From: Azolla caroliniana
Lineage: Eukaryota; Plantae; Polypodiophyta
NCBI GenBank assembly: GCA_043228905.1
Contig: JBHGNT010000015.1
Span: 12,710,001-12,774,000 of the forward strand
DNA length: 64,000 bases
Direction: 5' to 3'
The notes beneath the pieces were generated by a model. That model was not told where the DNA came from. It made no database searches and worked only from the letters and a program-made list of their open reading frames with translations. Positions within the stretch are counted from its first letter, which is position 1; every line of letters starts with the position of its first letter. This document shows positions 5,576 through 46,863 of the stretch, piece by piece. The position numbers and the translations under genes are program-made.

Positions 5576-5775
5576 GTTCAACAAAATCCAAAAATCTTTG
5601 AGTTTTAGCTTCAATTATATTTCTCACCTCTTCAAACCCCAGATGAAACAAACGATTAAATTGAGATTGCAATTTCTCCTTTGATTGTGAACATAATAGT
5701 CAAGCATTTCCCACCTCTTTAACCCCGAGATGAAACAAAGGAGTAAACTGAGACTACAATTTCTCCTTCGATTGC
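5576..5775. repeat. Satellite unit (same family as 22091-23300), split by the chromovirus insertion
   Basis: GTTCAACAAAATCCAAAAATC...CTCACCTCTTCAAACCCC matches the units at 22091-23300. The unit continues at 21550. Confidence 0.85.
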
Positions 5776-5874
5776 TGTTAGGATTAGTACTAAGACAGAG
5801 AAGGAATTAGTACTAAAAGATGAGGATTAGTACTAAGAGAGGTGTAGAACTCTTGAGAGAAGGAAAGAGTGAGC

Positions 5875-5905
<31 letters not shown>

Positions 5906-6211
5906 GATGAGAGAATGATGATAAAAGATATATATTATGTGAAGAGAGTATTCAATAGTAGCTAGGAGGCTTAAGACTAGCGTTGAACCGATTTGGTTCG
6001 AAATAAGTCCTTGTGCCTCCTCTTATAGTGTTCTCAGGAGTACTCCTGAAGTTTCTAGAATGTTCTAGAGAAATCTGGAATATACATCAATTTTCTATAA
6101 TAAAACATCAATGAAAATAATATTTTACATATTACAATGTATGGTCTAATGGTCAAGAGCTCGACCCATGTAGCATAAGGTCATGGGTTTGAGTCTTGCC
6201 ATATCATGACA
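5776..6211 (-). repeat. 3' LTR of chromovirus A
   Basis: Closely similar to 21102-21549; contains a (GA)n tract. Confidence 0.93.
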
Positions 6212-6214
6212 CTA

Positions 6215-8594
6215 TCCCCCCTTTAAAACGACGAGTGTCACGAGTCGTTTTGGATTGAGGACCCGGTTTGTTTGGATATTGACGATGGAAGTCTTCAAGA
6301 AGAGCATGAGCATTGGCCACATTCTCTATCGGTTCCCAAGTACGCTCACTAGGACTATATCCTAGCCAATCGACTAGATAGTAGAGCTTGTTGCGAAAAA
6401 TCTTGGAATCAAGGATGGCAGCAACCTCGTACTCAGGTTCATCTTCAAGCTCGATCGGGGGTGGAGGCTATGTAATACGTCCTGGGATGGTGCTCTCTTT
6501 ATAGGGTTCGAGGAGAGAACTATGAAACACCGAATGTATCCGAAGTTGCGGAGGTAGATCGAGACGAAAAGCGACATCATTAATCTTTCCTATAATATGG
6601 AAAGGACCTAATCGCCGATAATCCAACTTCTCGCATGGGCGAGTAGTCTTGATGTGTCGTCGTAATAGCCATACCCGATCTCCAATGTTAAAATAGGATG
6701 GAAGTTGATGACGATCCGCATAAACCTTGTGTGTTTGTGGAGCTTGTTGGAGATGAGTAGATAAATCGGCTTGTATCTTGCGTAACCGCTCTAAACTATC
6801 CTCTGCGCAAGGATTTGTGGACAAGTCTGGGGTTTCAAATACACACCACCGGGGGTGAAAACCCGTATAAGCATAAAATGGCGTAACTTTAGTCGATGCG
6901 TGGACAGAGTTATTGTAGGCAAATTCGGCGAAGTGGAGAATATCTGCCCAGTCATCCTGATGATAGCTTAGAAAGCACCGAAGATACTGCTCCAACGTTT
7001 GATTTGTTTGTTCTGTTTGGCCATCGGTTTGTGGGTGGTAGCCGGAGGAGAGGTTACAAGTGACCTTGAGCATTTTCAAAAGGTGCTTCTAGAATTTTGA
7101 TACGAACTAGGGTCCACGGTCGTTGATGATACTATCGGGAAGGCCAAGATGTCGACATACTTCACGCATGACAATTTCATCAGTTTCTTCACTGGATATT
7201 TCTTTAGTACATGGCAAGAAATGAGCCATCTTCATATATCGATCTACGACTGTTAGAATCGCATTGAAACCCTTAGAGATTGGAAGATCTGTGATGAAGT
7301 CTAGAGCAATGGATTGCCATGGCTTGCTTGGAATTGTTAATGGTTCTAATAAACCATATGGATGATGCCTTGGCATTTTTGCTCTGCAGCATGTATCACA
7401 AGTCCGAACAAAATCTTTGACAAATTGTTGCATACGGGGCCACCAAAATTATCGTTGTACTAAATCTAATGTTTTAGTACTAATAAAATGCCCAGTTGTA
7501 TATGTGTCATGACAGTTTTGGACTACTTGAAGGCGGCAAGAACCATTAGGAACATACAACAGTTTATTAAAGAATAGTAATCCATCATGGTATTTGAATT
7601 GTCGATAGTCCGTACCTGGTGGTTGCGACTGTGAACAAGATGCTCGAGAGGGATCAATTTGTGCTAGAATGGCTTGGGCGAAAGCATCGGTCTTCAAGTC
7701 CTCACGTATAGTAGCGATAACGTGGGAATCCATGGGCATGCCAAGGACCTATGTTGCTTGCACTCGTGTCGGTCCCAAGATTACTTGCTTTTGGTTATCA
7801 AAAGCTGGCTCGCCGGGACGCGGTGCTAGGTACGAACGCCGTGATAATGCATCTGCCTTCCCTTGGTGCTTCCCCGGACGATATGTAATTTTCAAGTCGA
7901 AACGGGTGATAATGCATCTGCCTTCCCTTGGTGCTTACCCGCCGAGCTTGACGTCGATTTAACACACGAGCGTCCTGAAAGTAGGCAAGGTATTTGTGGT
8001 CACTGAATACGGTGACTTGATGAGAGGATCCCTCTAGAAAATGCCTCCATTGTGTAAAAGAGTCCACTATTGCCAATAGCTCCTTATCATGAATTTCATA
8101 GTTGATTTCGGCAGCGTCAAACTTGCGTGAGTGAAAAGCCACAAGATGTAGCTTCTCATCATTACCCCGTTGTGACAGAATGCTCCCTAATGCGAAATTC
8201 GATGCGTCTGCTTCGATAATGAATGGTTTTTCCGGATCAACATGAGCTAGAGTTGGAGTCGATGTAAATTCCTTTTTAAGACTCTCGAAAGCCATGTCCG
8301 CTTCTTTAGACCAAACGAACAATTGTCCCTTCCTGGTAAGCTGTGTGAGAGGCAGAACGAGCTTTGAGTAATCCTGTATGAACTTCCGATAAAAATTGGC
8401 AAAGCCTAAAAAGCATTGCACATCTCGCACCGAACGCGGAGTCTGCCACTCTACCACAGTTTTGACCTTAGCTGGGTCCATGGAGATGCCTTCCGAGGAA
8501 ATGACATAGCCCAGAAATTCCACCTGGTTGCACCCAAAACTACAGTTTTCCAGCTTTGTATAAAGACCATGTTCTCAAAGTCATTTTAGTACTA
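6215..8594 (-). pseudogene. chromovirus A pol 3' part (RT end, RNase H, integrase, chromodomain)
   Basis: FLGFANFYRKF, EADAS, HPQTDGQTE, GPF and YLVDWLGY motifs, with stops. Confidence 0.9.
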
Positions 8595-9367
8595 GGGTGA
8601 AAGCATGCGAGTGGAAACAATTAGCTATGTCCTTGACATAGCTAATTAGCTATGCAAAAAGCTACCATTGATAAATAGTCATTTTAGTAAAAAGCCATCA
8701 TTAATAAATTAAGTATGCAAAAAACTACCATTGAAAATACTAGAGTGTTTTAATTACATATGTAAATGAGTGCCATAAATGTGCAACATAAATTGATGTG
8801 TGCACCATAAATGTGTACCATAAATTATATATCGAATTCCTAGGTCCATTATGCATGATCCTTTGCCACATCACGTAGGCCATCTCTAGTTGAGTATTGT
8901 GGGTTAGTTGCTATCACTGTTGCTAAACCCTATCGAGTCCACCTGCCGCCACTCTACACTGAGGGGCCGCTACTGTGCGTTCCAAGCATCATCAAAGAGT
9001 TGCTCAATCTAACGGGGTTCTCTCCTCCATTTCCATCATTCTATACTCAATTGCCGCTACTGTCCAATCCCGGATTGCTTCCACATTTCGATTTGACGGA
9101 GTTCACTCATCCAACGGCAACATTCTACACTTAGTTGTCGCCATTGGTCGGTCTTGGATCGCCTCCTCAACTGTTCGATCCAACGGAGTGAACTCCTCTA
9201 CTGTTCGGTCTTGGATTGCAATAACTTTTCTGTCTATTGATTATCTTGTGTATTGTTGTGTCTAATCTTGTGTATTGTGGAATATTTTTGTGTATTGTTG
9301 TTGCCCATAGCCATCTTAAATACTTGTTTTTTTTCTGGAAATTTAGGGTTTTAACATGTCCAGCCAA

Positions 9368-12300
9368 ATGGAAGGGGAAGAAGGGTGTTTAGAATTACCC
9401 CTCAATGATCATAAGGATAGGGATGATGCTATCAGGACACAACAAGCCATACGAAACTATTGGGCAGAAAAAAAAGGAAACATCGTCAATTGTTGAAGGA
9501 TATGAAAGCCACACTCAGTAAAGGTAAGGATAGTTTAGCTGAGAATGTAAGTAATGCGACTACCATCATAGAGAGAAAGGTTGTAGACTATTTCAATGTT
9601 CAAACCAAGCACATCAGCAATGAAGAAAAGAAGGTAGTACTTTATGGAATATGTAATGATCCATCGATAAAGGACTTAGTTGATTGTGATGGTCTTAATG
9701 CAAACATATCATCTATTTTAGTAAATAATCTTCGTAATAGTTTCGTATCCATGAGCAGGTCAGAAGATGATCTTGTCTTAAAAAGGTCTACTCTAATGAT
9801 GTTACTTAATAGTGATGTTGACGATATAAACATCAGTGAGCTATCTAAGGTAATTGGTGTTAGTAGAAAAACAATGTACAATACAATGAACCGTATAATT
9901 TCCTCGGGTGAAGGAACTAGTCTACTAAAGCTAACTACAAGATGTAAGCCAATGACACCCATAACATTTGAAATCAAGGATGTAATCACAATGTTTTGGA
10001 CTAATGAGAGTAGGGTTTCACCCAATAAAAAGGATTTATGCAGGAAACGTGTTGGAAGAAATCAATACGAGGAGCATCCCATTCATCTTCTTGATGTACC
10101 TCAGGTATTTACATTTATCTCAACATTTGTTTTGACTCTACACGGAAAGTTAATTAGCTCAGTTAGCAGAAAAGCTAATTAGCTTATCAGTTACATTTAC
10201 CTCAGTTAGCTACTAGGATAACTACTACATAGGTAACTGGCTACTCTCAATAGCTACTACCATGATAGCTAATTAGCTATTCTCAATAGCTAATTTAGGT
10301 ACTACCAGATAATTAGCTGTACTGGTAGCTAGTTAGCTATTTCGTTATTACCAGCTAATTAGCTACCATGATAGCTAATTAGCTTACTAGGACAACTAAT
10401 TAGCCACCGTGATAACTAATTAGCTACTAGACCAGCTAATTTGCTACCATGATAGCTAATTAGTTAGGACAGCTAATTAGCCACCATGATAGCTAATTAG
10501 CTACTAGACCAGCTAATTAGCTACCATGATAGCTAATTAGCTACTAGACCAGCTAATTAGCCACCATGATAGCTAATTAGCTACTAGACCAGCTAATTAG
10601 CTACCATGATAGCTAATTAGCTACTAGACCAGCTAATTAGCTACCATGATAGCTAATTAGTTACTAGGAAAGCTAATTAGCCACCATGATAGCTAATTAG
10701 CTACTAGACCAGCTAATTAGCCACCATGATAGCTAATTAGCTACTAGACCAGCTAATTAGCTACCATGATAGCTAATTAGCTACTAGACCAGCTAATTAG
10801 CTACCATGATAGCTAATTAGTTACTAGGAAAGCTAAATAGCCACCATGATAGCTAATTAGCTACTAGGAAAGCTAATTAGCCACCATGATAGCTAATTAG
10901 CTACTAGACCAGCTAATTAGCTACCATGATAGCTAATTAGCTACTAGGACAGCTAATTAGCTACTAGAATAGCTAATAAGCTACTAGAATAGCTAATTAG
11001 CTACTAGAATAGCTAATTCGCTACTAGAATAGCTACTAGGATAGTTAGCTAGTTACGAGAATAACTAATTCCCCTTTATTACGCAGGTCGATTTATTTAT
11101 GGTTCAAACGAATGCATCCAACTATCGAAGTTCAACTACGAACATTCGAGTCTCTTAAGCCACACTTTGTGAGACGCTTAAAGGATCGATACACATGTTG
11201 TTGCATTTACCATGTACAGATGGGTTTTCTGAAGGACTCTATTAATCTACTACGTCACCATAGCGCATCCCTAACTAATACAGTTTGCACATGTGGGTGC
11301 CCAATCTGTCGATCAAGCCCGCAAGAGGAGTGTAAATCATCTGAGCACGTTATCTCTTCCATGAGTTATTTATTAGATTCAATATTGTGTCTGAGAGAAA
11401 CTGATGCTATCTTCCATATTCATAAATGTGTCATGGGTTTATGTCAAGATTGTGGCCCTACTAGATTTAGGTGGTGTCCAAATGAATTGAGTAGTGAAAT
11501 ATTGATCTCTGTGAAGTTCTTTGAGTCAGTGAACACCAATTTCGAAGGAAAGGTGTGTAAAAGAAAGGATCTAGTTCGGAAGATGCTTAAACCAAGGGAT
11601 TTGGTGTCTCTGTTTGTAGTATCTCTAGGAAAGTTCATTAAACACAACTTCATTTATTCATGGCAGGCCCATCAGTTTAAGACTTGCATATCTGATTTCC
11701 CAAATGATGTAGTAGTCTCAGTAGTAGATTTCGCAGAGAATTATACTTTCAAGCAGCAGAATGAAATTCAATCTATGCATTGGTGTTCAGTTCAGGTAAC
11801 CATTTTTGTGCACATAACATATTTTCGAGTTTCAGGTGATGTTAAAAAAGTAATTCATTTCTTTATTTCCGATGATAAGAAGCATGATACCTTGTTCGTC
11901 CAACACTGTTTTAAGTTACATTGGCAGTGGTTATTAGCTCAACGTTTGGAGCTTACTCAACATTGGGTCTGGTCTGACGGAGCTGCTTCACAATTCAAGG
12001 CTCGACGTCCATTTTATTTTGTGGGGAGGTGTCCTGCTATAACAGGTTTGGAGATGAGATGGAATTTTTTTGGGTCTGGCCATGGTAAAGGTGAACATGA
12101 TGGTGCAGGGGCTGTTATAAAGCGGGCACTTACCCATGAACAACTAAAGACAGATGGTGTGCACATGAATTGTGCATCACATGTAGTTGAATTTTTAAGA
12201 ACAAATATGTCAACGAGTGCAACATGTGTTTATTCCTCGCAAGTCCGAGATATCAAACGTGAATTTTGGGAAGTGAAGATAGATGAAGTAAATAGGGAGA

Positions 12301-12926
12301 AGACCTGGGAGTGCCAAGGAATTCCCGAATTGCGATCTCTGCATGCTGTTCGCGGTTATTCCAGGTTGGATGGTCATTGTATTGCGGTTAGAGAATTGAC
12401 TTGTTTTTGCTTCCATTGTGTGTAGGGAAGTTGGAGATATTGTCTAAACAAAGCATACATTCAGAATTGGGAGTATCACACTCTGAATGATAAGGAAGCA
12501 GTTGATGGAGAAACAGGGCAGAATGCTGACTTCACATATGAGGGACTTGGAGATACTTTGAGTGATGTCCTGAACGTTGGGGATAACTTCGCTGTAAATG
12601 CTGAAGAAGGCAATTCAGAGGGTGCTAATTTCTATATATTAAAGTGCACGGTTAGTAAACAGTGTGCAAGGCAGAATATTGTAGATGCATGGGGAAATTT
12701 TGTATCTGCCGGGACATTCTACATCGAAGGCATTTTTTATGCAAAACTAGATGACTACGAATATGTGTACAGGCTGTTAGAAGACAAACCAACGGCGTAC
12801 ATGTACTCTCATTTGGTCAGGTGCATCAACGTCCCAATGTCAGAATACAATAGCTGCTCAGGTTTATACACTGTTGGTGCTAATGTGTATGAATGTATTT
12901 ACAATAGTATGCCATGGAATTTGTAG
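9368..12926 (+). pseudogene. Sola2-type DDD transposase, 2 coding exons (~9368-10104, 11087-12926)
   Basis: DFAENY, SDGAASQFK and GHGKGEHDGAG catalytic motifs plus Cys clusters. GT-AG intron 10105-11086. Lesions: a frameshift in the A-run at ~9470, a frameshift at ~11102, and TAG at 12423 followed by in-frame continuation to 12926. Confidence 0.82.
10150..11070. repeat. Intronic minisatellite of 20-bp units built on the palindrome TAGCTAATTAGCTA
   Basis: Alternating CTACCATGAT-AGCTAATTAG and CTACTAGACC-AGCTAATTAG units, with exact 20-bp phase over 10481-10980. Confidence 0.95.
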
Positions 12927-15900
12927 CTACAAGTAGCCCAAAAATCAGAAAGTCTCTTGAATCTTGCAGCTTCCATTTGCTCACAATTTTCTCGTGCCCA
13001 TTGACCTTTAAAACGACTTCGCCATTTTGGGAAGAATCTTGCCAAACACTTCCACACATCTAATTTTGGTTTTTCACTCCAAATAAACAAATCAAAGTAT
13101 TGCACAACCCACTCTAGAAACAAATCAAAGTATCGCGTCCCTCCTTGGTTGCATATATCTCACACTCATCAAGACTTTATCAAGCTCCAAGATCAAGGCT
13201 CTTCTTTCGACTTCTAGTGGTTTAGGTTTCCATTCCTAAAACTGAGCCGTTGTTACACCATTTTCTGGTAAGATACGATCAATCTCAATCAGCTCAGGTT
13301 CGGCCGACACAACTGGCGTCCTTTTCCTCTTCAAACCCCTAGTCGACTGTGTTGGGCCTGGCTTCACATTCTGGTGCTCTTGTTTTGTCGACTTAGTTAT
13401 CAATCCTTGGATTACCTCGGTGCATGTAGCTACTGATCTGCTCGATATCAGTCCACTGGTATCACATGCTGCATCTACCTGCAACACCAAGTCATCAGTG
13501 CTACATGCTGCATCTACCTGCAACACCAAGTCATCTGTGCTACATGCTGCATCTACCTGCAACACCAAGTCATCCGTGCTACATGCTGCATCTACCTGCA
13601 ACACCAAGTCATCCGTGCAACATGCTTGATCAACTTGTGTGACCAGATCACTTGTGTGACCCGATCACTTGTGTTAGTTGCTACATCTACTTTCAAGATG
13701 GGGCCCTTTAAACATGCCGCAACATCAACAGTATCCACACTGCCATTGGCCTTACGAGCAATAGAATCAAACCCTTTAGACTCTGCAACATCAGAAAACA
13801 CCAACATATTCACACTCACAAAGTAACTAACAGTCTCACAAAACAACATCTTGAACATCAAAGAGTTTCAGTCATAGAACAACACTCTTCAAATTATCTT
13901 GGAAAAACATCATAGAGTTCCATTACATAATGTGGATCAAGCAACAACCAATCTGAGGTTTTACTTGTCCAACAGGATAGTAAAACTTCATAAAACCCTA
14001 GCAAAATCCCTAAGCTAACAATCATATCCAACTAAACAGTATTTCGCTCCACTACGTCTGGGCCCCTTGACCGAGTAACTGGTCTTGTTCCCGATCGTGG
14101 CCCCTTCTTCAGCCTTTTTCTGGTCGGTTCCCCATTTAGCCTTGCTTCTTTCACCGAATGTGCAAGTGTGTCCTCCTCTGACAACCTTCCCATCGCCTCA
14201 GCAGCTAATTGCACATCAGCCGTTTCTTGAACTAGCTTTTCAAGTACAGAGGGATTTGTTTGGACATTTTCAGTAGTTGGGCTCGGTGGGGTGGAATCAA
14301 GGTCTTGAGATTCGAAGAAATGTTGCATCAAGTGTTCATAAACACTGTTGTTGTGAACCTCAGTTTTACATGTTGTTTCCACTATTTCATGGCATTTCAC
14401 ATCGTTGCCTAATTCAGTACACTGTTCCAAAAGAATAGGGTGGAGCTGTTCTGAAGGAGATGTGATAGCAGGACTCTTACTTTCAGCCACGTTGGCAGTA
14501 GTATTTTCATCTGTTGCAGCGTCATCAGCACCAGACACATCATGTGCCGTCCTTAATCCACAAGATTCTACAATAACATGGCAACTATTTAGGATAGCTA
14601 ATTAGCTACTTTACTAAACTATGGTAGAAGCTAGGATAGCTAATTAGCTAGTACGATAGCTAATTAGCTAGTATGATAGCTAATTAGGATAGCTAATTAG
14701 CTACTTTACTAAACTATGGTAGAAGCTAGGATAGCTAATTAGCTAGTACGATAGCTAATTAGCTAGTATGATAGCTAATTAGGATAGCTAATTAGCTAGT
14801 ACGATAGCTAATTAGCTACTTTACTCAACTATGGTAGTAGCTAGGATAGCTAATTAGCTACTATGGTAGCTAATTAGCTACTTTACTCAACTATGATAGT
14901 AGCTAGGATAGCTAATTAATTAGCTACTTTACTCAACTATGGTAGTAGCTAGGATAGCTAATTAGCTACTATGGTAGCTATGGTAGCTAATTAGCTACTT
15001 TACTCAACTATGGTAGTAGCTAGGATAGCTAATTAGCTACTATGGTAGCTATGGTAGCTAATTAGCTACTTTACTCAACTATGGTAGTAGCTAGGATAGC
15101 TAATTAGCTACTATGGTAGCTATGGTAGCTAATTAGCTACTTTACTCAACTATGGTAGTAGCTAGGATAGCTAATTAGCTACTTTACTCACTATGGTAGT
15201 AGCTAGGATAGCTAATTAGCTACTTTACTAACTATGGTATTAGCTAGGATAGCTAATTAGCTAGTAGGATAGCTAATTAGCTACAATGATAGCTAATTAG
15301 CTACTTTCTCAACTATGTAGTAGCTAGGATAGCTTATTATCTACTAGGATAGCTTATTAGCTACTTTACACAACTATGGCAGTAGCTAATTAGCTACTAT
15401 GAGGGCTAATTAGCTAATAGGATAGCTAATTAGTTGCCAGTAGCTAATTAGCTAGTAGGATAGCTAATTAGCTTTTTTACACAACTATGGTACTAGCTAA
15501 TTAGCTAGTACCATAGCTAATTAGCTACTAGGATAGCTAATTAGCTGCTAGTAGCTAATTAGCTACTAGGATAGCTTATTAGCTGCTTTATACAACTATG
15601 GCAGTAGCTAATTAGCTAGTAGGATAGCTAATTAGCTACTAGGATAGCTAATTAGTTGCCAGTAGCTAATTAGCTACTAGGATAGCTAATTAGCTTTTTT
15701 ACACAACTATGGTACTAGCTAATTAGCTAGTAGCTCATTATCTGCCAATAGCTAATTAGCTAGTAGGATAGCTAATTAGCTACTTTACACAACTATGGTG
15801 CTAGCTAATTAGCTATGAGTAGCTAATTAGCTAGTAGCTAACTAGCTGGCATTAGCTAATTAGCTAGTAGCTAACTAGCTGGCATTAGCTAATTAGCTAG

Positions 15901-18330
15901 TAGCTAACTAGCTGGCATTAGCTAATTAGCTGCTAGTAGGATAGCTAATTAGCTAGTAGCTAACTAGCTGCCACTTAGCTAATTAACTATTGTAGTAAAC
16001 TATGGCAGTAGCTAATTAACTAATAGGATAGCTATTAGCTGCTTTAATCAACTATGGTAGTAGCTAATTAGCTACAACGATAGCAGCAAAATAGTTTCCA
16101 TACTTTTTACGACTTAGCTAATTAGAAAAGACTAAGCTTATTAGCTACAGTATGGTATACCTATTAGTTTTCTCCACTCATTTGGTAGAGCTGGCTGTAC
16201 TGCAATCTCCCAAACAGAATGCAGCAATTCGACAGGCATGTTGAAAACAAAGCAGATGGTATGTGTGGTTGCATGGTTGTAGGTGAACCAACAAAGACGC
16301 AATTTTGTCCTCCACACCTAACCCGCAAGCGATGCAACGTGCTTGAACTGTCAATAAATCATTTTCTGGTTTTGCTTCATTTGGTAAGGGAGCAAGAATG
16401 TTCAGGTCCAAATCCTGTCTGGTCCTTACCATTCCCTCCACAAAATGTAGCTGCTTCTTAAGGCAGCTAACTACCTGTTCTTGATGAATGTATTGTTCCT
16501 TCAACGCAACAGAGAAATTTACCGATTAATTATTCCTGTTGTTGAAAGATACACCAACTTTGCTCAGGAATCGTTAACTTACTTGAAGCTTATCCAAATT
16601 GTAATCTGCAACAGTATTTACACCTAGAAGGTCCAGGTTCATTGAAAGAACCTGGATCTCTATTTGCAGTTGTATTTTACGCTGGGGATCCAGTGGCCCC
16701 TCTAATTCAAGCTCCTGTTGCGCAACCTATTCTAGATAATGCTTGATTAGCACATTTTACCCTTAAAGTTATTTATAACACAATCACATACCAACAAAAC
16801 AATAGTTACCTGAATCTTATTTCTAATCGTTGTAACAGCGGAAGTAACTTTGCTCTCCATTGCAGAAGCCATTGTGGCTTTCTCTAAATCAGTCTTAAAA
16901 CATGTCAATGTCTCACATGCTTCATGGACATTTTTTAGCATATAGCTAACCAATGTGTCACCTATATCATCGACATTGGCTTTCCTTGGGTGTCGGTGTG
17001 ATGTATGCCCCCGGTCTTGCTGGGAGTCGGCAGTTGCATCAACAACTGCCATGCTCCAAAATCTGTCTATTTTTTGTGCCAAGGTCCCCATCTTTCGGCA
17101 TCTTTTTACCGATGCCTCACCATAGACTGCCCAAGCTACCCTATACATTTGAGGGTCTCTAGATTCCTTCGCTGTTTTGCAGTACTCATATGCAAATGCT
17201 CTAGCAAATGAAACTGACAACTCATTGTTGACTGGGATCTCCTGATGAACTTTCTGGTGCAGTCTCATGCAGTCATCATACAAGTCGGCTCGTACATGCT
17301 TCAGCTTGACCTTGCCTTTGACTCTAGGCATTGTATATACTGTCATCCAGTCTACATCACTGATCAATTTATCACTTAGGACAATAGGGTCAACACCCTC
17401 GAGTGACAGACCATAGGTGTTGTGGAAGTCCTCCTTTGTCTCGCAAAATTTTGCGAAGTTTAGCACTCTTGTATACGGAGGAACGAGCCATCTGAAATAT
17501 CATTTCAAAAATTAGAAATAGTGCAAAATCAGAATATGTGAGAATCAGAAACCCCAATCAAAAACAACAAAAATGGTGCAAAATCTTTAACTTAGCAAAT
17601 CAGAAACCCTAATCATAATTTGTATTCAGAAATTTGAAATCAGAAACCCTAATCAAAATTTGTAATCAGAAGTTTGAAATCAGAAACGCTAATCAAAATC
17701 TGTAATCAGAAGTTTGTAACCAGAAACCCTATTCAGAAATTCTAATAAGAAATTTATAATCAAAAACCCTAATCAGAAATTTCAATTAGAAACCCTAATC
17801 AGAAAATTCAATCACAAACCCTAATCAGAAATCCTAAACAAAAATTTATAAACAAAAACCCTATTCAGAAATTCTAATCAGAAATTCTAATCTGTAATCA
17901 AAATTTGTAACCAGAAACCCTATTCAGAAATTCTAATCAGAAATTTATAATCAAAAACCCTAATCAGAAATTTCAATCAGAAATTTCAATCACAAACCCT
18001 AATCAGAAATTCTAATCAGAAATTTATAAACAAAAACCCTAATCAGAAATTTCAATCAGAAACCCCAATCATCACTAAAGACAGGATTAAACACAAAAAA
18101 AGTAATATAAACACACCTGTTGCTACTCCCCGATTTGCGAGACATCCTTGTATGGGACTCCAAGGACTTCGCCCTATTTGATTTTGGAGAAATATGAATC
18201 GGCACCAAAGTTCAGACAGTAGTCAAAAAGAAAAAACAAATGTTTGGGGTTTCTGTAACTGAAACATACCTGGACGATGATCGAGCGGGTTCTGTGTTGT
18301 AGCTCTCAATCTGCAATGTCGATTTTCTGC
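12899..18330 (-). CDS. Multi-exon accessory gene of the Sola2 element (probably partly decayed): unknown N-terminal domain, coiled region, RING-like finger, acidic and repeat region
   Basis: ORF blocks bounded by AG/GT sites at ~17491-16810, ~16727-16583, ~16499-16162, ~14550-14040 and ~13785-12899. CIAC...CNHTYHLLC...C motif. Exon limits are approximate. Confidence 0.6.
13465..13627 (-). repeat. 39-bp coding tandem repeat (TDDLVLQVDAACS x4)
   Basis: CATGCTGCATCTACCTGCAACACCAAGTCATC repeated 4 times. Confidence 0.9.
14590..16150. repeat. Second intronic array of TAGCTAATTAGCTA-based units
   Basis: Dozens of GATAGCTAATTAGCTA cores with variable spacers such as CTTTACTCAACTATGGTAG, lying between exons of the accessory gene. 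Confidence 0.95.
17520..18072. repeat. Intronic AAACCCTAATCAG (telo-box-containing) minisatellite
   Basis: Repeated CAGAAACCCTAATCAGAAAT variants. Confidence 0.85.
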
Positions 18331-18624
18331 TGTTGCGGGAGCTACGTCTGCATTCGTGCTCTGAGTACTCCATCTGCGTTCAAAATCAGACTTAGGCTAA
18401 ACAGGAAATTGATGACATTGAAGTCGACCTTAGATGATGGTGCTATTCCCCAAGTTCCACTACGTCTGAAACAGAAGTTCAAATATTTGAGTTTTTTCAT
18501 AAATTAGTTTTTCAAATATTTGATTTTCCCACAAAAAAGACTAGTTAAACAAATAGCTAATTAGCTATGGCCATTTTAGTAGCTAATTAGTTATAATAGT
18601 GTTTCTACTCGCATGCTTTTACCC

Positions 18625-20944
18625 ACTAACAGTACATGAGAATCATGCTCTTCTTGGGTCTTCAAATAAACCAGTAGATCATCTAAAGAGATGATCAAAC
18701 AAATATCCAAGAGATCTCGGAAAATATCATTTTCCATGTGTTGGAAGACTATTGGCGCATTAGTGAGGCCGAACGGCATGACCGTATACTCAAAGTGCCC
18801 ATATCTAGTGCGAAACGCAGTCTTCCATTCGTAAGTCGATCTTCGTGAAGAACTTGGCACCATTGATCCGTTCTAAAAGACTTGAGATAAGGGGAAGTGC
18901 ATACCTATTTCTAATTGTAACCTTATTCAAGCCACTCTAATCTACAACGAGACGAAGTGATCCATCCTTTTTCTTGACGAAGAAAATGGGTGCGCCGGCT
19001 AGAGATTTCGAATGCCCAATAAAACTATTTTCCAAATTCTCCTTTATATAGGCTCGCAGGACTACTAGCTCGGTTGGTGACAAATTGTAGATCGGTCCCC
19101 ATGGTGACTCTTTCCCCGGTTGTAAATCGATGGGGCAATCATACGGTCAATGGTGAGGAAGCGTATTGGCTTGTACTTTATCGAACACATCGGCATAATG
19201 ATGATACTTCTTTGGAAGTTGAAGGGTGGAATCCTCTTTAATGGTGTCTGAGGGCCTTACTGATATTGCGAAGAGAAACATTTCTTCATTGCGTCCTTCT
19301 TCCCGCAATTGATGTAGCGAAATGGTTGTAATCTCATGAGTAGACCCTCGGGCTTTTCGATACCAGATTTCTCTTGTTCTCCAATCCATGTTTGGGTTAT
19401 GTAATTCAAACCATGGTAATCCTAAAAAAATGGGGTGTTCTGGGATGCTAATTATATTAAATGATACTACACATGCTAGATTATCTAGCACAATATTAAC
19501 GGGCTCTGACTCTTCTATGATATTTCCGGAAGCAATGGGACGACCATCAATGACTACTACAGAGGCTGGACACGAGAGTTTTCTGAGTGATATCTGATGA
19601 GCTTGGGCAAAGATCCTATCCATGAAGCAAGAATTAGCTCCGGAATCTAGAAGTGTTAAGACATGTACTAGAGGGGTACTTTTAGTACAAATGTTACTTG
19701 GGCTACGAACACATTGCTAACTTGCTTAGAGGGAATGGAACCACTAATGGGCTGCACAAATCTAGGGCTATCCAACCAAACGGCTCCTATTTTGGCTGGA
19801 CTTAGTCGTTTAACTCTTCTTCTAACTGACTAAGGACATCAAATTTGTTCGCTAGATTTGGGCTATTAGTACTATTAGGACTATCAGATATCCCTATTGA
19901 AATAGACTCGGGTTTAGTACAATCAGAACTTGCAACTATTTGGTTTACCTGCCTTCTTGGCCTATGGGTACAGTTTACCGCGATATGCCTTGGTCCACCG
20001 CAATAAAGACATAGTCGGTTTGCTCGGCATCGTTGCTTTTCTTCTTCCAATAGCGGTCCACGACAACGTGTGGTGTCAATTTCCATCGGAGTTGGAGTAC
20101 TTACTAGAGGCACATTATATGACTACCTCGGAAAAGGTTTCGCTACCATTGAGGCGTAGGTAGGCTCAGATCTTGCCCTTGGCATCTAGAATTGACATTC
20201 TGAACGCCGTTCGAAGAGGCGATTGTCGCATCTCACTGCGCGACTGATTGCTTCTATTAATGACTTTGGTTCTTCGGGAAAGGTCAAGAGTAAATCTTTG
20301 ACATCGTTACGTAGACCATAACGAAATTGCTCAATTAATGCTTGATCATCCTAGGGGATATCGGAGGCGAGTAGACAAAAATCTGCAGCGTATGTGGAGG
20401 CTAGACGATCGCCTTGACGTAGTCGTCGGATTTTGTTGATTGTTGTCCTTATGCTGTCAGTATCTCCAAAACAGGCTTTAAACTCACTTATAAATTCTTC
20501 AAATTTGTTTAGTACTGGAGATTCTTTTTCTAACAACGGAGCGAACCATGCCAACGCTGAGCCACTTAACAACGTGCCTACTAAACCCACTCGTGATGCA
20601 TCGGTGGGATATCGGGAAGGATGCATCTGAATAACTAGTCGTACCTAATTAAGGAACCCCCTAAACTGCAATCGCGTTCCATCGAATTTCATGGGAAGGC
20701 CGATCTTGGGTTCTTTATGAATCCCTTGTGTTCCGGGTCCTTGTTGTTGCATCGCTACGATGGTTGCTTCGATTTGTTGCACACGTAACGTCAGCTCCCC
20801 GTGTTGTTGTTGTTTTTCCTGTGCTATTTGTTGAAGATCCCCCAACAAACGATGATTTTCTTGTTCTAGTGCTACAAATTTCTTCTTTAAGCACTGGAGT
20901 TCCGAGAAAACAGATTGGTATTCCTGAACACTAACAGTTTCCAT
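18625..20944 (-). pseudogene. chromovirus A gag and PR-RT 5' part
   Basis: gag ORF pieces 20944-19802; protease; RT motifs [12 protein letters not shown] and MPFGLTNAP. Confidence 0.9.
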
Positions 20945-21101
20945 TTTACTAGGGAGGATAAGAGGATTAGTATGAAAGGAAGAAAGGGGTAAGAAGATGT
21001 GGGAAACCGAAAAGAAGACCGGAAAAAGGGGATATGTAAGAAGATAAAAGGAAGAGGAGGAAAGGAGGAGACGGAAGGAGGACGTGAAAATCGGTTCAAA
21101 C

Positions 21102-21191
21102 TGTCAGGATCAGTACTAAGACAGAGAAGGAATTAGTACTAAAAAATGAGGATTAGTACTAAGAGAGGTGTATAACTCTCGATAGAAGGAA

Positions 21192-21256
<65 letters not shown>

Positions 21257-21549
21257 TGATAAAAGATATATATTATGTGAAGAGAGTATACAATAGTAGC
21301 TAGGAGGCTTAAGACTGGCGTTGAACCGGTTTGGTTCAAAATAATGCCTTGTGCCTCCTTTTATAGTGTTCTCAGGAGTACTCCTGAAGCTTTTAGAATG
21401 TTCCAGAGAAATCTGGAATATACATCAATTTTCTATAATAAAACATAAATGAAAATGATATTTTATATATTACAATGTATGGTCTAATGGTCAAGAGCTC
21501 GACCCATGTAGCATAAGGTCATGGGTTTGAGTCTTGCTATATTATGACA
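21102..21549 (-). repeat. 5' LTR of chromovirus A
   Basis: Paired with 5776-6211; adjacent non-tRNA PBS at 21088-21099. Confidence 0.93.
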
Positions 21550-22090: not shown

Positions 22091-23300
22091 GTTCAACAAA
22101 ATCCAAAAATCTCTGAGTTTGAGCTTCAATAACATTTCCCACCTCTTCAAACCCCAAATGAAACAAATGATTAAATTGAGAGTGCAATTTCTCCTTTGAT
22201 TGTGAACATTATAGTCAAGCATTTCCCACCTCTTTAACCCCCAGATGAAACAAAGAATTAAATTGAAACTACAATTTCTCCTTTGATTGCCAACATAATA
22301 ATGAAGAAGACACGATTACAAAAAGTCTCTTTCTTTCTTGTTGTTTTTTTATCGTAATTACCTTACCCTAGCTCTACTACTGAATAATAAACGTAGATTT
22401 GAGTGGAATGCATAATAAGCATCATAGTTCAACAAAATCCAAAAATCTTTGAGTTTGAGCTTCAATTACATTTCCCACCTCTTCAAACCCCAAATGAAAC
22501 AAATGATTAAATTGAGAGTGCAATTTCTCCTTTGATTGTGAACATTATAGTCGAGCATTTCCCACCTCTTAAACCACCAGATGAAACAAATGATTAAATT
22601 GAGACTACAATTTCTCCCTTGATTGCCAACATAATAATGAAGAAGACACGATTACAAAAAGTCTTTTTCTTTCTTGTTGTTTTTTTTATCGTAATTACCT
22701 TATCCTAGCTCTACTACCGAATAATAAACTAAGAATTGAGTGGATTGCATAATAAGCATCATAGTTCAACGAAATCCAAAAATCTTTGAGTTTGGGCTTC
22801 AATTACATTTCCTACCTCTTCAAACCCCAAATGTAACAAACGATTAAATTGAGACTACAATTTCTCCTTTGATTGCCAACATAATAATGAAGAAGACACA
22901 ATTACAAAAAGTCTCTTTCTTTCTTGTTGTTTTTTTTATCGTAATTACCTTATCCTAGCTCTACTACCGAATAATAAACTAAGAATTGAGTGGAATGCAT
23001 AATAAGCATCATAGTTCAACAAAATCCAAAAATCTTTGAGTTTGAGCTTCAATTACATTTCCCACCTCTTCAAACCCCAAATGTAACAAACGATTAAATT
23101 GAGACTGCAATTTCTCCTTTGATTGCGAACATAATAGTCAAGCATTTCCCACCTCTTTAACCGCCAAATGAAACAAAGGATTAAATTGAGACTACAATTT
23201 CTCCTTTGATTGCCAACATAATAACAAAGAAGACATGATAACACAACATATCTTTCTTTCTTGTTGTTTTTTTATCGTAATTACCTTATCCTAGCTCTAC
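22091..23300. repeat. Tandem satellite, ~335-bp units with ~77-bp internal subrepeats
   Basis: GTTCAACAAAATCCAAAAATC recurs at ~22091, 22426, 22763 and 23014. Confidence 0.9.
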
Positions 23301-24028
23301 TAGTAACTCTAGGTCTTGGTTTTGAGACCCAATATTCTAAATTCTCTATTACTCCATACATATCCTCTATTCAATTGTAGTCCTTAGAATTGTTGATGAT
23401 TATCAAGCACAAACAAATGCCTAACAACCAAGTATATACCTTGCAAAGGAATAAAAAAATGTAGTGCAAAGGGAAAAAAGTTTCATAATGATTGATATGA
23501 AGCTCGAAAATTCCTTATGAGTTTGTTATAATCAAGGATAAGGAAAATTATAAAAAACGATTGCATGAATATAAAAGACTTTCAAAGAAAAAGAAGAATA
23601 TGGGAAGTTACTCAAAAACCGCATCAAACATGAGAAAGCAAATGCATGTGCTAAATATTGAGAAATCTAAATGGGAAATGTGTTGAGCATTTATGGTGAC
23701 TTAACTCTTATGGACTTGTCTATGCATTATAAGAAAGTATATGGGCACTCAAATGTTGGAAAGATGATGTGTTATGGTTCTCTTTCACATACACGTCCAT
23801 TCTTTACAATTGAAGATGTATGCATAGGGCTTAAGAATTTGGCCTTTTAAAATGAAAGGGATGATCAAAGTCCAAAAGTTGAAAGGTTCAAATGGATAGG
23901 AAAGGAAGTACATACAAGAATAAGTGATATGTTTAGTTATGGATTGCAACATGGTGTCAGGAATAGTACTAAAGCAGAGATGGAGGTAGTACTAAAGAAG
24001 GGAAGTACTATTAGTACTAAGAGGACGG

Positions 24029-24893: not shown

Positions 24894-27800
24894 TCACGTG
24901 ATACGTGTGAAAGTGAGTAGTGACTCTCGATGTTCAAGAACTTTACCAATGAATGTTGCAATCGAGAGTGCACATTGTGGTTGTGAGAGGAATTCATGCA
25001 AAGATTGGGCTCGATCGAAGAGATATGGAAAGCATGGTCGAATATGATCAAAGGCAGAGCATTGTATCAAAGTGTGATACTCAGACTCGCGAACTTGTTT
25101 AGGGCAAAGTGTACATAGCCGACCACTCTCATCACTTGTACCCCAACGCCTTATTTCACATCGCAATGCATGTGAGCTAAGTCGCATGGAAGCAATGGTT
25201 CGAATGGCAGATAACGGTATGGGCTCTAACATGTATGGATGTGTACGATTTCCCCGTTCCGCAAAGAATATGGTTTTGTAGTTAGGTGCAACATGTGTAG
25301 TATAATGTGTGAAGCGTGAGCCTCCACATTTGTCCCATGTCATGGTACATTGGCGTTGCAAAAATGCCTCATTTACAGAGGAATCTAATGATGCATCATG
25401 AAGCAAGTGTCTCGCATCCCATCTACCAAACCATTTTTCTACATCTTGCATCCAACCGGAACACAAAATTTTGCTTTTATGCGTTGTCGTAGTGTATTTC
25501 GTACACTACGTGAAAAAGTAAAAATAATATAACCGATTTAATTACATATAAATAAATAAAATAAGAATATCAAGATATTTATCACCAATAAATAAAATAA
25601 AAATATCAAGATATTTATCACGTGCATAGGGCAAGATTTGAACCTTGTACCTCCACGTAGCCAAACCTCAACTTTACCATTATGCTACCTTATCTTTAGT
25701 GTTCTATAAATAGATTTAATAACTATAACTGCTTTATTTGCGCCTACCTTTATTAAAAGGTAAATCATGTATTTTTAGAGTGCGTGAATATTTTATAGAA
25801 AAACGCAAGCGACTAAAAAGTGACTCATGCACATCTAGCGTGCATGAGCACTATATTTAGCAAATAAAAGCAAGGATTAGAAAAGCATCACATGCACATT
25901 TAGTGTGCATGAACATATTAGAAAAAAAGCATGTAGCTATGCTTAGTCTCTCCCATCACTACATAAGGATGGGGAGCACAATGTAATAGGTGTGTGAAAA
26001 ATATTTGGGAAATTGGATATATTTCCTAAAACACCAACAATCAATAAAATATACTCGTGGGATTCACGAAGTTTAAGATAATCTATCTCTTTCAATCTAA
26101 ATTCATATTCTTACATAAATATTGATTAATGTAATACTTGTGGGATTCACAAGGTTTGATCTCTTTTCTCAATCTACTCTAATCTATTCTAAATTATTTC
26201 AATTTATTACTACGATTTAGATAAACTAAAACAATTATACTTGTGGGATTCACAAGTTTCTATATCTCTTTCTAATAATCTATTCATTACTAGCCTCATC
26301 TCATATTCTTCTTTCTCCTAGTCCAAAACCTCGGCGGTTCCCACCCGACTCACGCAACGATCCGGAGCCGAAAGGCACGACACAGTTGGTGAACCCGACG
26401 TGAAGGCGGGTGGCAAGGAGATGGAGAATCAACAAGAGGCGATGAACATGATGATGATGATGTTCGAGAGAATGCTACAAGAACAACGCGAGATGTCGGA
26501 GATCACGACAGTAGTACAACGGCTCGTGCAACAGAACGGGCAATTCGATGGAAAGGACGTGTCACGCTATCTACGTGACTACAAAATGGAGATGTTGCGA
26601 TATGGTATCTCAGAAAGATTGCAAGTGTTATCTTTCAACCGGGTGGCTACGGATGAGCTTCAAGAGAGAATCCACGAGATACGACAACAAAGCCCGATGT
26701 GGGAGTCCTTTGAAGAAGCTATACGAGACACATATGACTATCTAAGACCGAAGCGGACGAGGACATGGTCCACGAACGGCGGTCAACAGTGGGTGAAAAG
26801 CGGCCACCGACTACCACCGAAGGAGAGCTTGATGCGGAAGGGTTCGGAGATGCATGAAAAGTCGCAAGTCGACATTGAAGGGGAGCTTAAAACCGAACCA
26901 AAGTCGAGGCCAACAAAGGACGAGGAGGAGGAAGATCGAGGACGAAAGGGTATCCCCACACCGGTTCCAGAGACTTCGGCGGCTGTGCCCGTGCACCAAC
27001 GTGAGACCGGAGAGACGGAATGTGTCGGTGGAAAAGTGGAGGACCGGAAGGGCAACGAGGAAGACAAAGTAAATGAGCACGAACGAAGGGATTCCTTCAC
27101 CATTGTTTCGGAGACTTCGGTACTGGAGCCCGGGTGTCGACATAACACCGAAGATAAGGAAAGTGGCGGCAACGAAACGAAGGTCGAAGCCGATGCATAC
27201 GAAGGAGAGATAGCCAAGGAGAACATGGCTATGGGTGAAACAACGGAAGATGATAATACCGAGGATTCCTACCCACTAATTCTAGAGACTTCGGCGGTTG
27301 TGTCCGAGAACCAACGTGAGACCGGAGAGACGGGAGGTGGCAACAAGGAAGGTAAAGTCGGAAGCCGGTTCGGATGGAAGATGATCCGTCTGAAATTCCG
27401 ATGTAAACAAAAGCATGACAACGCGAAGGTCGGGTCTACGATGGGAGAAGCATGTAATACGGAGCACGCACTACGGCACCAAAAGAAGCACGTGCTACGG
27501 CGTAAAGAGAAGCACACGCTACGGCGCAAAAAGAAGCACGCGCTACGGTGCAAAAATAAGCATGCACTACGGGGTAATACGGCGCATGCACTACGATGGA
27601 ATACGAAGCATGCGCTACGGCCTAATACGACGCATGCGCAACATCGAGAAATAAAGCATGCATTAAAGCCGCACAAGGACCTAACAGCGAGCGCGTATTC
27701 GGAGGTCGACATCGACGCGTGGGTAGAACCTACGGAAGACAAGCGCGGAGTGGAGAGAGACAACACACCGAGATGCTCAAGAGTACCACAAGGGACCATG

Positions 27801-30800
27801 ACAACCACTCATGGCAATGCAAAGAATGAACAAAGAATATGGTGGATCGGATGGCGACAATGGTTCGGGTGGAAAGAATGGGTCTACTCAAAATGGAGAG
27901 ACAAAGTTGACATAGCGGGACAAACGGAGGATGAAGGGGAGACAACGAGCATCGGCAACTTCGGCACATACCGGAGGATGTGCGGGTTCGGAGGGGGCGA
28001 GTGTCGTAGTGTATTTCGTACACTACGTGAAAAAGTAAAAATAATATAACCGATTTAATTACATATAAATAAATAAAATAAGAATATCAAGATATTTATC
28101 ACCAATAAATAAAATAAAAATATCAAGATATTTATCACGTGCATAGGGCAAGATTTGAACCTTGTACCTCCACGTAGCCAAACCTCAACTTTACCATTAT
28201 GCTACCTTATCTTTAGTGTTCTATAAATAGATTTAATAACTATAACTGCTTTATTTGCGCCTACCTTTATTAAAAGGTAAATCATGTATTTTTAGAGTGC
28301 GTGAATATTTTATAGAAAAACGCAAGCGACTAAAAAGTGACTCATGCACATCTAGCGTGCATGAGCACTATATTTAGCAAATAAAAGCAAGGATTAGAAA
28401 AGCATCACATGCACATTTAGTGTGCATGAACATATTAGAAAAAAAGCATGTAGCTATGCTTAGTCTCTCCCATCACTACATAAGGATGGGGAGCACAATG
28501 TAATAGGTGTGTGAAAAATATTTGGGAAATTGGATATATTTCCTAAAACACCAACAATCAATAAAATATACTCGTGGGATTCACGAAGTTTAAGATAATC
28601 TATCTCTTTCAATCTAAATTCATATTCTTACATAAATATTGATTAATGTAATACTTGTGGGATTCACAAGGTTTGATCTCTTTTCTCAATCTACTCTAAT
28701 CTATTCTAAATTATTTCAATTTATTACTACGATTTAGATAAACTAAAACAATTATACTTGTGGGATTCACAAGTTTCTATATCTCTTTCTAATAATCTAT
28801 TCATTACTAGCCTCATCTCATATTCTTCTTTCTCCTAGTCCAAAACCTCGGCGGTTCCCACCCGACTCACGCAACGATCCGGAGCCGAAAGGCACGACAG
28901 CGTCTTTTGGATCTTTTTGCTTGCTTCCCACGCAATTCTAGGAAGTCGATGTGAGGGACTTTTTTGAACCTTAAGCATGTATTCAACAACCCTTTCCATG
29001 GCCATGATCTCAATGGGAAGCGATCCCGTCTCAAGGAGGAGGAGGGTGTAGGGCGTTTGTTTCTTAACTTGTAGAAACTTGGTAAGAAAATGCTTTTGGA
29101 CATTTTCAAACTCTTTCCACATAGACTTAGGGATGCTACCGCCCCATACTTCCACCCCATAGAGAAGAACTGGTGTCACCAAAGTGTCAAAAAGATATTT
29201 CTTGAGGACCCAACACTTAATATCTCCAAGATTGCATGTGTTCTCAAATGCATAGTATGCTCGTTTGCCCGCCTTTAAGCGGCGTGTAGCACATTCATTC
29301 CATCTATGATTTGAAGGAACTTCAAGGCCAAGATATTTGAAGCTTTCCACACATTCAAGTGGCTCATTGTTGTACATAATGCATGGTTTATCTCTTTTTT
29401 GGCTCTTCACAAGCATAATCTTTGTTTTAGAGCTATTGACACTTAATTTAGTATGCATGCAAAAATTTTCCAATGCCTTCATAAGCTTTTGTGCATCTCC
29501 TAAAGTATTTGCAAAAAGCACTACGTCATCTGCATATAGCAAAAGCATAATCACAACATTCCCAATGGCAACTTCTTCAACACATTCTTCCTTTGCAAAC
29601 TTGGTAACCATTTCTTCCAATTCATCAATGCATAGACCAAATAGTGTTGGTGAGAGTGGGCATCCTTGCTTTACACCAATAGTGCTTTTGAAAAAATCTG
29701 AAAGTTTATCTCTCATGCGCACACAACATATAACCTTCTCATAAATTCGGGAAATTGCAAGCATATATTCACTTGGCACCTCAAGTTCTTCCATTCTCCT
29801 CCAAAGATGCTCACGAGGTACCATATCAAAAGCTTTCTTGAAGTCTACAAAGCAACAATATAAACCTTTACCTCTAAGGCGACTTTCCTCCATTAATACT
29901 CGAAGGGTGATAAGGTGATCAATGGTGCTATGGTGTTTCCGAAAGCCAGCTTGTCCATAAGCTCTCTTACCACTTTTTTCAGCCCATACACTTATCTTTG
30001 ATTCCATTATACATCCAAATAGTTTTGCCATTAATGAGCCAACCATGATGGTTCGATAGTTGTTTACATTATTTATATCTCCACCTTTATGTAAAGGTTT
30101 GATCCAATTTGTAGTCCAATCGTACGGCATACCATGTTGCAATGCATCATTAAACATATCGCTTATCCATATATGTGCTTCCTTTCCCGTCCATTTGAGC
30201 ATTTCAGCCTTTATACATTGAAGATCGCTTGCCTTTCGAGAGGCCAATTTCTTAAGTCCTATGCATATATCTTCAATTGTAAAGAAGGAAGGCATATGTG
30301 AAAGAGAACCATAACACATCATCTTTCCGGCAAGAGATAACTCATATAAATTCTTACAATGCAGAGACAAGTCGTGAAGAGTTAAGTCACCATAACTCTC
30401 AACACGTTTTCCCTTTAGATTTCCCCAAAATTTAGCACATGCATGTGCTTTCTCTTGCGTTTGGATAAATTGTTGAGTAACTTCCCATATTCTTCTCTTT
30501 CTTTGAATAAGCCTTTTATACTCATGCAAATGCTTTTGGTAATTCTCTTTATCCTTAACTACATCCAAAACCATAAGGCACTTTCGAGCTTCACGACATT
30601 CTTTATCAAACCATTTTCTCCTAAGTTTCTTGGTGCATTTCCAAGATGTGCGGTTGGTCGAAAAACATTTGTTTGTACATGAGAGAATGACTTTCTTGAA
30701 AGCTTCCCATTTGCATTCTAGTGTGGCACCATGTTGTATCTTTGTCATTTGTAACATATCCTCAACCATCTTGGAATACATGGGTGCTCGCTTAAGGTTC

Positions 30801-38055: not shown

Positions 38056-38505
38056 TGTTAGGAATAGTACTAAAGCAGAGATGGAATTAGTACTAAAGAA
38101 GGGAAGTACTATTAGTACTAAGAGGGCGGGATTGCGTAAGACTCCCAAGAGAGAGAGAGAGAGAGAGAATAGAAAAGAGAGATAGCGAGGATGAGAGAGA
38201 GAGAGAGAGATGATGATAACAACCAATATATTATGTGAAGGATAAGTACAAAATGCCTAAGAGGCTTAAGACTAGCGTTGAACCAATTTGGTTCAACATA
38301 ATGCCTAGTGCCTTATTTTATAGTGTTCTCAGGAGTAATCCTGAAGCTTCTAGAATGTTCCAGAGAAATCTAGAATATACATTAATTTCCTATAATAAAA
38401 CTTAAATGAAAATAATATCCACGTATTACAATAGATGGTATAATGGTCAAGAGCTCGACCCATATAACATAAGGTCATGGGTTCGAGTCTTGCCATATCA
38501 TGACA
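38056..38505 (-). repeat. 5' LTR of chromovirus B
   Basis: TG...CA termini; matches the reassembled 3' LTR. Confidence 0.9.
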
Positions 38506-45595: not shown

Positions 45596-45626
<31 letters not shown>

Positions 45627-46750: not shown

Positions 46751-46863
46751 TCTATGTGTGTGCGTAAGTATGTGTGTATGTATCGCATAGGTTGAGGGCT
46801 TTGCGTGTCCTTGCTCTAAATGCTAAAGATTGCATGAATGGAAAACACCTTTGAGTTTCGCTT

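Follow-up and report, generated by a model that had tools for sequence, protein, structure and literature searches.

A 64,000-nucleotide stretch of the Azolla caroliniana genome (contig JBHGNT010000015.1, positions 12,710,001 to 12,774,000; the window) contains, at window positions 8595–18624, a DNA transposon that we assign to the Sola2 superfamily. Two of its predicted introns are filled with arrays of a palindromic word that also sits near both ends of the element. The transposon is bounded by 25-bp terminal inverted repeats (TIRs) with two mismatches (GGG..CCC; 8595–8619 on the forward strand, 18600–18624 on the reverse strand) and by a 4-bp target site duplication (TSD), ACTA, with its left copy at 8591–8594 (forward strand) and its right copy at 18625–18628. 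Next to the left TIR lies a subterminal hairpin (8620–8652, forward strand) made of a half-site, ATGTC-N3-GACAT and a second half-site, and ending in one full copy of the 14-bp word (8639–8652). Two more copies on the forward strand precede the right TIR (18554–18593), an exact one at 18554–18567 and one with a single mismatch at 18580–18593.

The transposase gene, on the forward strand, consists of exon 1 (9356–10104), a 982-bp GT..AG intron (10105–11086) and exon 2 (11087–12926), which encodes the motifs DFAENY (11727), SDGAASQFK (11973) and HGKGEHDG (12081). A second gene (gene 2) converges on it from the reverse strand. After exon 1 (18117–18145, MSRKSGSSNR) and intron 1 (17492–18116) come exon 2 (16810–17491), exon 3 (16583–16726, its acceptor set from a spliced contig of a relative) and the RING-H2-like exon 4 (16161–16498). 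Intron 4 (14568–16160, GT..AG) directly follows the RING exon and leads to an acidic, low-complexity exon 5 (14035–14567) and to a last, NIF/FCP1-like exon (12930–13830), truncated and broken, whose start is not fixed.

The original prediction, made from the letters of this DNA, had named the TIRs, the 4-bp TSD, a transposase of Sola2 type and a second, multi-exon gene converging on it, and all were found where it placed them. Its description of the element as complete is true of the ends but not of the genes. The transposase has lost 1 bp near 9467 and 2 bp near 11100, and it has a TAG at 12423–12425. Gene 2 is disrupted by a 4-bp insertion at 16190–16193 and by the loss of ~630 bp at a deletion junction (12929/12930) that took with it the 3' end of the NIF-like exon and a third motif cluster, located between the 3' ends of the two genes.

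Copies of the family and their arrays

A search of the 523-Mb A. caroliniana genome with the TIR pattern of the family to which the window element belongs (family A) returned 557 exact matches against 0 for the control, corresponding to ~280 copies. The best 40 exon-2 matches, the window copy among them, were 99–100% identical, and all 10 other complete copies checked had a 4-bp TSD of their own. Removal of the GT..AG intron left a transposase frame of ~863 aa from the first ATG open in four of six other copies, the remaining two being one with a stop and one unscored. The window element is a damaged member of a two-gene Sola2 family that amplified recently. For changes shared by a subfamily, a figure resting on two old copies each, the ratio of nonsynonymous to synonymous changes (pN/pS) was 0.15 in the transposase and 0.30 in gene-2 exon 2; for private changes it was 0.82–0.91. 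Judged from these ratios, both genes are under purifying selection. In one case (L009 and L010) a young copy lies immediately past the point where the gene-2 array of an older copy starts, and a further old fragment lies beyond.

The assignment to Sola2 is based on the DDD transposase motif set, the 4-bp TSD and the TIRs. Transposase residues D215, D298 and D339 were invariant in 32 sequences, and named relatives of the protein came from moss, liverwort, fern and conifers. Sola2 termini are GRG..CYC, and the TIRs here begin GGG. DFAENY, SDG..QFK and HGK..DG agree by eye with the Sola2 alignment in the available part of PMC3627910, and a 4-bp TSD is given for Sola2 in the consulted portion of PMC10741241. 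Exon 1 gave a weak HTH_11 match (helix-turn-helix, HTH) in copy L007, with an E value of 5.6e-5 that does not reach the Pfam cut-off. Exon 2 had no Pfam match, its C-terminal domain of ~145 aa (12426–12923) had neither a Pfam nor an Atlas match, and a PDB sequence search with the transposase returned nothing. The original prediction had also described Sola2 as mostly non-plant. Sola2 is nevertheless on record from plants: according to the accessible text of bioRxiv 10.64898/2026.07.23.736688, no DNA-transposon superfamily is more abundant in Cupressus.

The array word of family A is TAGCTAATTAGCTA. With up to one mismatch it occurs 76 times in the window, always within the element, and 0 times in 100 shuffles. 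With up to two mismatches there are 35 sites at 10172–11023 in the transposase intron, 58 sites at 14595–16147 in gene-2 intron 4, the three subterminal sites (8639, 18554 and 18580), all within ~70 bp of a terminus, and one site outside (47214). The ~2.5 kb of intron arrays and the palindromes inside both TIRs were as predicted. The original prediction had not seen the word outside the element, and for the window this is true at one mismatch or fewer. With two mismatches there is the site at 47214, and genome-wide the word is also present in copia long terminal repeats (LTRs) and in a miniature inverted-repeat transposable element (MITE). Genome-wide we counted 19,622 exact sites, compared to 11 for the control. 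An independent satellite is ruled out by the fit of this number to ~280 copies with 52–69 sites each plus fragments, MITEs and LTRs. On contig C1, the first 79 distinct sites among the matches listed comprised 73 in or beside Sola2 ends (assigned mostly by position), one in the MITE and five in copia LTRs.

Each of the 10 other full copies that were examined has arrays, and the transposase intron measured 842–1797 bp in nine of them. Array spacing was mainly 20 or 40–42 bp, near two helical turns, with 20 bp the commonest value in the transposase intron. Across 546 and 709 units the 12-bp core was 84–100% conserved, a figure in part built in by selecting sites with up to two mismatches; the flanks were variable and unlike between the two introns. 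The cytosines of the core are all in CHH context, and the arrays of copy L007 are CG-poor (4–10 per kb, versus 29–48 in exons). Motif clusters are not confined to introns: besides the arrays in the two introns, the cluster between the genes holds two to six sites in 10/10 other full copies.

In six relatives (L044, L045, L061, L062, L064 and L085) the last residue of transposase exon 1 joins the first of exon 2 in a single frame, and other relatives have a ~90-bp intron at this position, which argues that the transposase array lies in an intron. Gene 2 was modelled with five exons and GT..AG ends, which gave a 570-aa open frame in six of 10 copies, the other four being unscored. At the level of sequence, then, removal of the array segments at GT..AG restores open frames, as the idea of spliced-out arrays had it. 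In three probable RNA runs, all from one study of a relative ~95% identical, contigs skip gene-2 intron 2 (78 nt, CT..AC), and those of two of these runs connect exon 1 directly with exon 2; a fourth run had no matching gene-2 contig. The spliced contigs exit the element inside gene-2 exon 3. When contigs of the four runs were compared with the interval from transposase exon 2 to gene-2 exon 5, a comparison that did not include the array stretches, no read-through to exon 1 was seen. One loose contig end at the transposase acceptor (run X2) had no match to exon 1.

Motif turnover among relatives

Relatives of the element from metagenomes carry arrays of other words. In the same transposase intron, L022 (60% identity) has TGGTAATTAGTA and CTAATAGTG, L024 a ATGCTAATTAGCAT-like word, L026 a GGTACT-based word and L027 AGGTGAAA; L067 has TTAGTACTAA in a different intron. 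An additional cluster lies past the transposase stop in L022, L024 and L026. The end hairpin of L022 retains ATGTC-N3-GACAT with other half-sites. No TIR pair with TSD was recovered for the metagenome loci, the L022 family was not found in the A. caroliniana genome, and a sister-family search that started from a distant protein recovered family A alone.

We compared the first 120 bp of each element with its own intron array by 8-mer sharing. The observed sharing was reached in 0/200 shuffles for the window element, L022 and L067, and in 3/200 for L027; L035, without an array, has left-end words with no intron match. End words thus match the element's own intron array in 4/4 array-bearing families with a left end; the motif differs between families and follows each family's ends.

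The A. caroliniana genome contains a second Sola2 family, family B (loci L141–L160), with 195 TIR matches, or about 100 copies. Its elements are 8–13 kb long, lack the family-A core and had 4-bp TSDs in 11/11 retrieved copies. AGTACT words lie at both ends, and an AGTACT array occupies the intron right after the RING exon, the same place as in family A. The spacing in family B is 52 bp. A GTAC-rich array lies in an extra, second transposase intron, which is not the array intron of family A. The convergent gene of family B encodes a distant form of the same N-terminal domain (hhalign 73%, E 3e-5) and a RING; it had no NIF match and ends in other exons. Family-A ends matched family-A introns beyond all shuffles (0/200 in all four cells), and A–B cross pairs of ends and introns were at shuffle level.

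The arrays could be functionless, with end sequence copied into introns by gap repair and expanded there through palindrome slippage and the tolerance of introns. Array length varies ~twofold among 99%-identical copies, and the elements also expand repeats of unrelated sequence: a telomere-like AAACCCTAATCAGAA array at 17598–18071, unrelated to the end motif, fills gene-2 intron 1, which measures 316–665 bp across copies where measurable. Also, arrays in the transposase intron used by family A were clear at eight of 24 loci, weak at two and absent from 14, many of them decayed copies with rough boundaries. Against this, the cores are held while the spacers differ between the two introns, and the layout recurs with new motifs at 45–60% transposase identity. 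It occupies two different introns of the transposase, and an array follows the RING exon in both families A and B. On balance we consider it quite unlikely that the arrays are functionless. A separate repeat, an ~80-bp unit present once or twice at 8948–9027, occurs in other copies (L007) as a tandem array of ~8 units that lies upstream of the transposase ATG.

The motif outside Sola2

A 297-bp gene-less MITE with family-A ends (L104:3102–3398) is present in at least 40 full-length copies that are 93–100% identical. It has one or two end motifs and no array, and 10/11 copies read had a matching TSD. Because this array-less MITE reached at least 40 copies, the arrays are not needed in cis for its movement. 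This bears on the possibility that the transposase binds the motif and that the arrays serve transposition, either as an enhancer of transpososome assembly for elements of 10–13 kb or as a sink for excess transposase. The motif near both termini and its retention by the MITE are what such a role would predict, as are the HTH-like region in exon 1 and the near-helical spacing. The movement of the MITE without an array speaks against it, and in particular against the transposase loading that the original prediction had listed among its options. Moreover, family B departs from the helical spacing, and transposase-loading sites would be of little use to an LTR retrotransposon, yet the motif is clustered in one. 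We regard a transposition role of the arrays as unlikely.

This retrotransposon is of the copia type. All 11 of 11 LTRs of one copia type have a motif cluster within their first 200 bp (for example L101:891–1342, G000:C1:7126190), compared to 0/22 of a sister type (reverse transcriptase ~53% identical), which has unrelated repeats of its own instead. This part of the LTR is probably U3. The cluster-bearing type accounts for 447 LTR starts, and a wider pattern that includes the sister type for 3,783. Exact strings of 20–31 nt, spacers included, are common to the copia LTR and Sola2 clusters, which points to common descent of the two. Sasaki is said to have described in 2022 a retroelement capturing a VANC target.

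The window element itself is inserted in a gypsy-type LTR retrotransposon on the reverse strand (5775–21549; LTRs 5775–6211 and 21101–21549, 92% identical). Each LTR around the insertion ends in three TTAGTACT(A/G)A words, which is the family-B motif, and gypsy-type LTRs at 5780–5838, 21106–21164, 38060–38121 and ~59206–59253 have three terminal TTAGTACTAA-type palindromes ~22 bp apart. These LTR-end palindromes may alternatively be an RNA dimerisation signal. The share of common 10-mers was 0.072 for copia and family A and 0.054 for gypsy and family B, against a shuffle maximum of 0.023 each; cross pairs were at shuffle level.

That both co-resident Sola2 motifs cluster in an LTR family could also mean that host transcription factors act through the arrays as enhancers, which Sola2 and LTR elements would each have come to use independently. 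We take TAATTA to be a homeodomain-type and GTAC an SBP-type core, and the sister copia LTR, with repeats of its own, would fit such a picture. Against independent use stand the shared spacers of LTR and Sola2 clusters, which point to common descent. The at least six unrelated motifs across the clade, together with hairpin half-sites that change with the array word, are easier to explain by a reader encoded in the element. Host-factor enhancers are, in our judgement, rather improbable.

Three other repeats were seen in the window. An array of 87-bp and 250-bp units lies at 22091–23302, with one more copy (5576–5775) beyond the opposite end of the gypsy element. Identical 898-bp direct repeats (25485–26382 and 28002–28899) surround a 24-bp tandem array (27454–27662) and are probably a very young LTR element. 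A TATG microsatellite of 1.2 kb occupies 45597–46783.

Gene 2 and a candidate role of the arrays

The gene-2 protein is ordered as an N-terminal domain of ~135 aa, long helices, the RING-H2-like finger and the downstream NIF-like exon. The N-terminal domain is conserved (155 representatives at E ≤ 0.001; named gene-2 homologues were all from Adiantum), and its helical fold was modelled with confidence (pLDDT 92). It had no Pfam match and no PDB or BFVD match by Foldseek (E ≤ 0.001), and the best VIA Z was 2.6; from the Foldseek and VIA results neither difference nor novelty follows. A PDB sequence search with gene 2 gave coiled-coil noise alone, and a dynamin-helix identity proposed by Atlas matches was set aside for low recognition. 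For 57 homologues, 25 of 56 Pfam families were listed, and none of these 25 is of VANC or MAIN type. A variable loop (residues 54–72) is net positive in 56/56 homologues, a weak hint at nucleic-acid contact.

FCP1/SCP (NIF) phosphatases have the catalytic motif DxDx(T/V). The NIF-like exon matched PF03031 at E 4e-8 in copy L007, above the Pfam cut-off. Where this copy has ELDKV, relatives have DLNG or DMNG, and the catalytic aspartate is lost; the domain is predicted to be a pseudophosphatase. NIF was present in three and RING in one of 45 long gene-2 homologues (E ≤ 0.001), which supports the joining of N-terminal, RING and NIF exons in one gene. Among 80 metagenome loci, whose contigs are mostly short, the profile of the N-terminal domain hit none and the NIF profile L024 and L027 only.

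We propose that the arrays may be high-density docking platforms for a protein encoded by the element that keeps the element's own genes transcribed against host silencing, a reading to which we give about an even chance. Four properties of the motif fit this reading best: it changes from family to family, it is conserved both at the ends and in arrays that evolve separately, movement can do without it, and a retrotransposon has retained it in what is likely its promoter region. A dimeric element-encoded reader would bind the palindrome, and the arrays would grow by tandem duplication where splicing shields the coding sequence. Dense binding would then recruit activation or demethylation, and the copia family, having acquired a cluster, would ride on the same activator.

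The accessible text of bioRxiv 10.64898/2026.08.24.746577 reports that TnpA requires dense motif clusters and that the AtMu1 transposase alone activates its own copies. The AtMu1 precedent, the motif at the MITE ends and the HTH match in exon 1 lead us to favour slightly the N-terminal region of the transposase as the reader. The conservation of gene 2 and the precedents of TnpA and VANC speak for the gene-2 domain instead. The gene-2 protein, with a new domain, a RING and a dead phosphatase, is likely the effector.

Several results weigh against a docking role. Neither array intron was seen spliced in the RNA contigs, where the spliced ones end in exon 3, and the gene-2 N-terminal domain has no DNA-binding fold recognisable in the Foldseek (PDB, BFVD) and VIA comparisons. 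Some mismatched pairs in the 8-mer comparison also scored high (L022 intron with window end, 6/200; L035 intron with L067 end, 0/200). In family B the match of the ends to the array intron of gene 2 was modest (3/200 and 10/200), and that to the array intron of the transposase (23/200 and 27/200) did not reach significance. The 14 loci without an array count here as well, and elements also grow repeats unlike their ends (17598–18071; the 5' repeat of L065), so that their non-coding DNA is repeat-prone. For the LTRs, transfer between Sola2 and LTR clusters may have run in either direction, and the gypsy match to family B, noticed post hoc and located at the LTR 3' end, is weaker than the copia case. 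A bolder version of the docking reading, which we think unlikely to hold as a whole, would have an independently evolved, sequence-specific anti-silencing system in the Sola2 elements of seed-free plants. An accessory protein combining an uncatalogued fold, a RING ligase and a dead phosphatase would act at family-specific arrays, and two unrelated LTR families of this genome would each have hijacked one Sola2 motif cluster so as to be activated by it.

If the docking reading is right, one transposon class may parasitise the activator of another. The genome offers a natural contrast, with two families that have different motifs, an array-less MITE, and LTRs with and without the cluster. The gene-2 N-terminal domain adds a conserved, confidently modelled fold for which no match was found.

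Spm and other CACTA elements have CACTA termini and a 3-bp TSD, whereas the Azolla element has GGG termini and a 4-bp TSD. The Azolla element resembles Sola2, as described in the available part of PMC3627910, in DFAENY, SDG..QFK, HGK..DG, the Cys cluster, short TIRs and the 4-bp TSD. It differs from that description in its length of 10–13 kb, in a conserved accessory gene that converges on the transposase gene, in intron arrays that match its ends, and in TSDs that are not restricted to AWWT. Sola1-1_Ec32 of Ectocarpus (PMC12477816) is likewise a large Sola element with an opposite-strand accessory gene proposed as DNA-binding, but it belongs to Sola1 and carries a ParB-methyltransferase cargo, and the string 'palindrom' is unmentioned in the accessible text. 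Our literature search, which left subscription papers, Repbase entries and bioRxiv supplements outside its scope, found no description of such arrays or of such an accessory gene in plant Sola2.

VANC targets are repeated in tandem within introns, between genes and in terminal regions (PMC5735166, available text), and Arabidopsis VANDAL elements with VANC (PMC5735166, PMC10398659 and PMC13547354, in the portions consulted) share with the Azolla family short family-specific motifs amplified in tandem in such regions, rapid motif gain and loss, and an accessory gene. VANDALs are Mutator-like with degenerate TIRs, whereas the Azolla element has Sola2 motifs and intact TIRs; VANC is dicot-specific and MAIN-related, whereas the gene-2 domain has no Pfam or solved-fold match. 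With Spm/TnpA and AtMu1 (bioRxiv 10.64898/2026.08.24.746577, accessible text, in which 'sola', 'moss' and 'bryophyte' are unmentioned) the Azolla element would share the activation of copies by their own proteins through dense clusters that include subterminal sites. In those systems binding is at the termini, whereas the Azolla sites are mostly intronic. The logic of self-activation is thus already known from VANC, TnpA and AtMu1. New here are the family-by-family matching of end and intron motifs, the family-B parallel, the array-less MITE, the copia LTR cluster and a gene 2 that is under purifying selection and, in a relative, partly spliced. Sequence-specific self-activation of transposons has so far been shown in Mutator-like elements (MULEs) and CACTA elements of flowering plants; if the docking reading is true, the strategy arose again in another superfamily, Sola2, and in another lineage, the seed-free plants.

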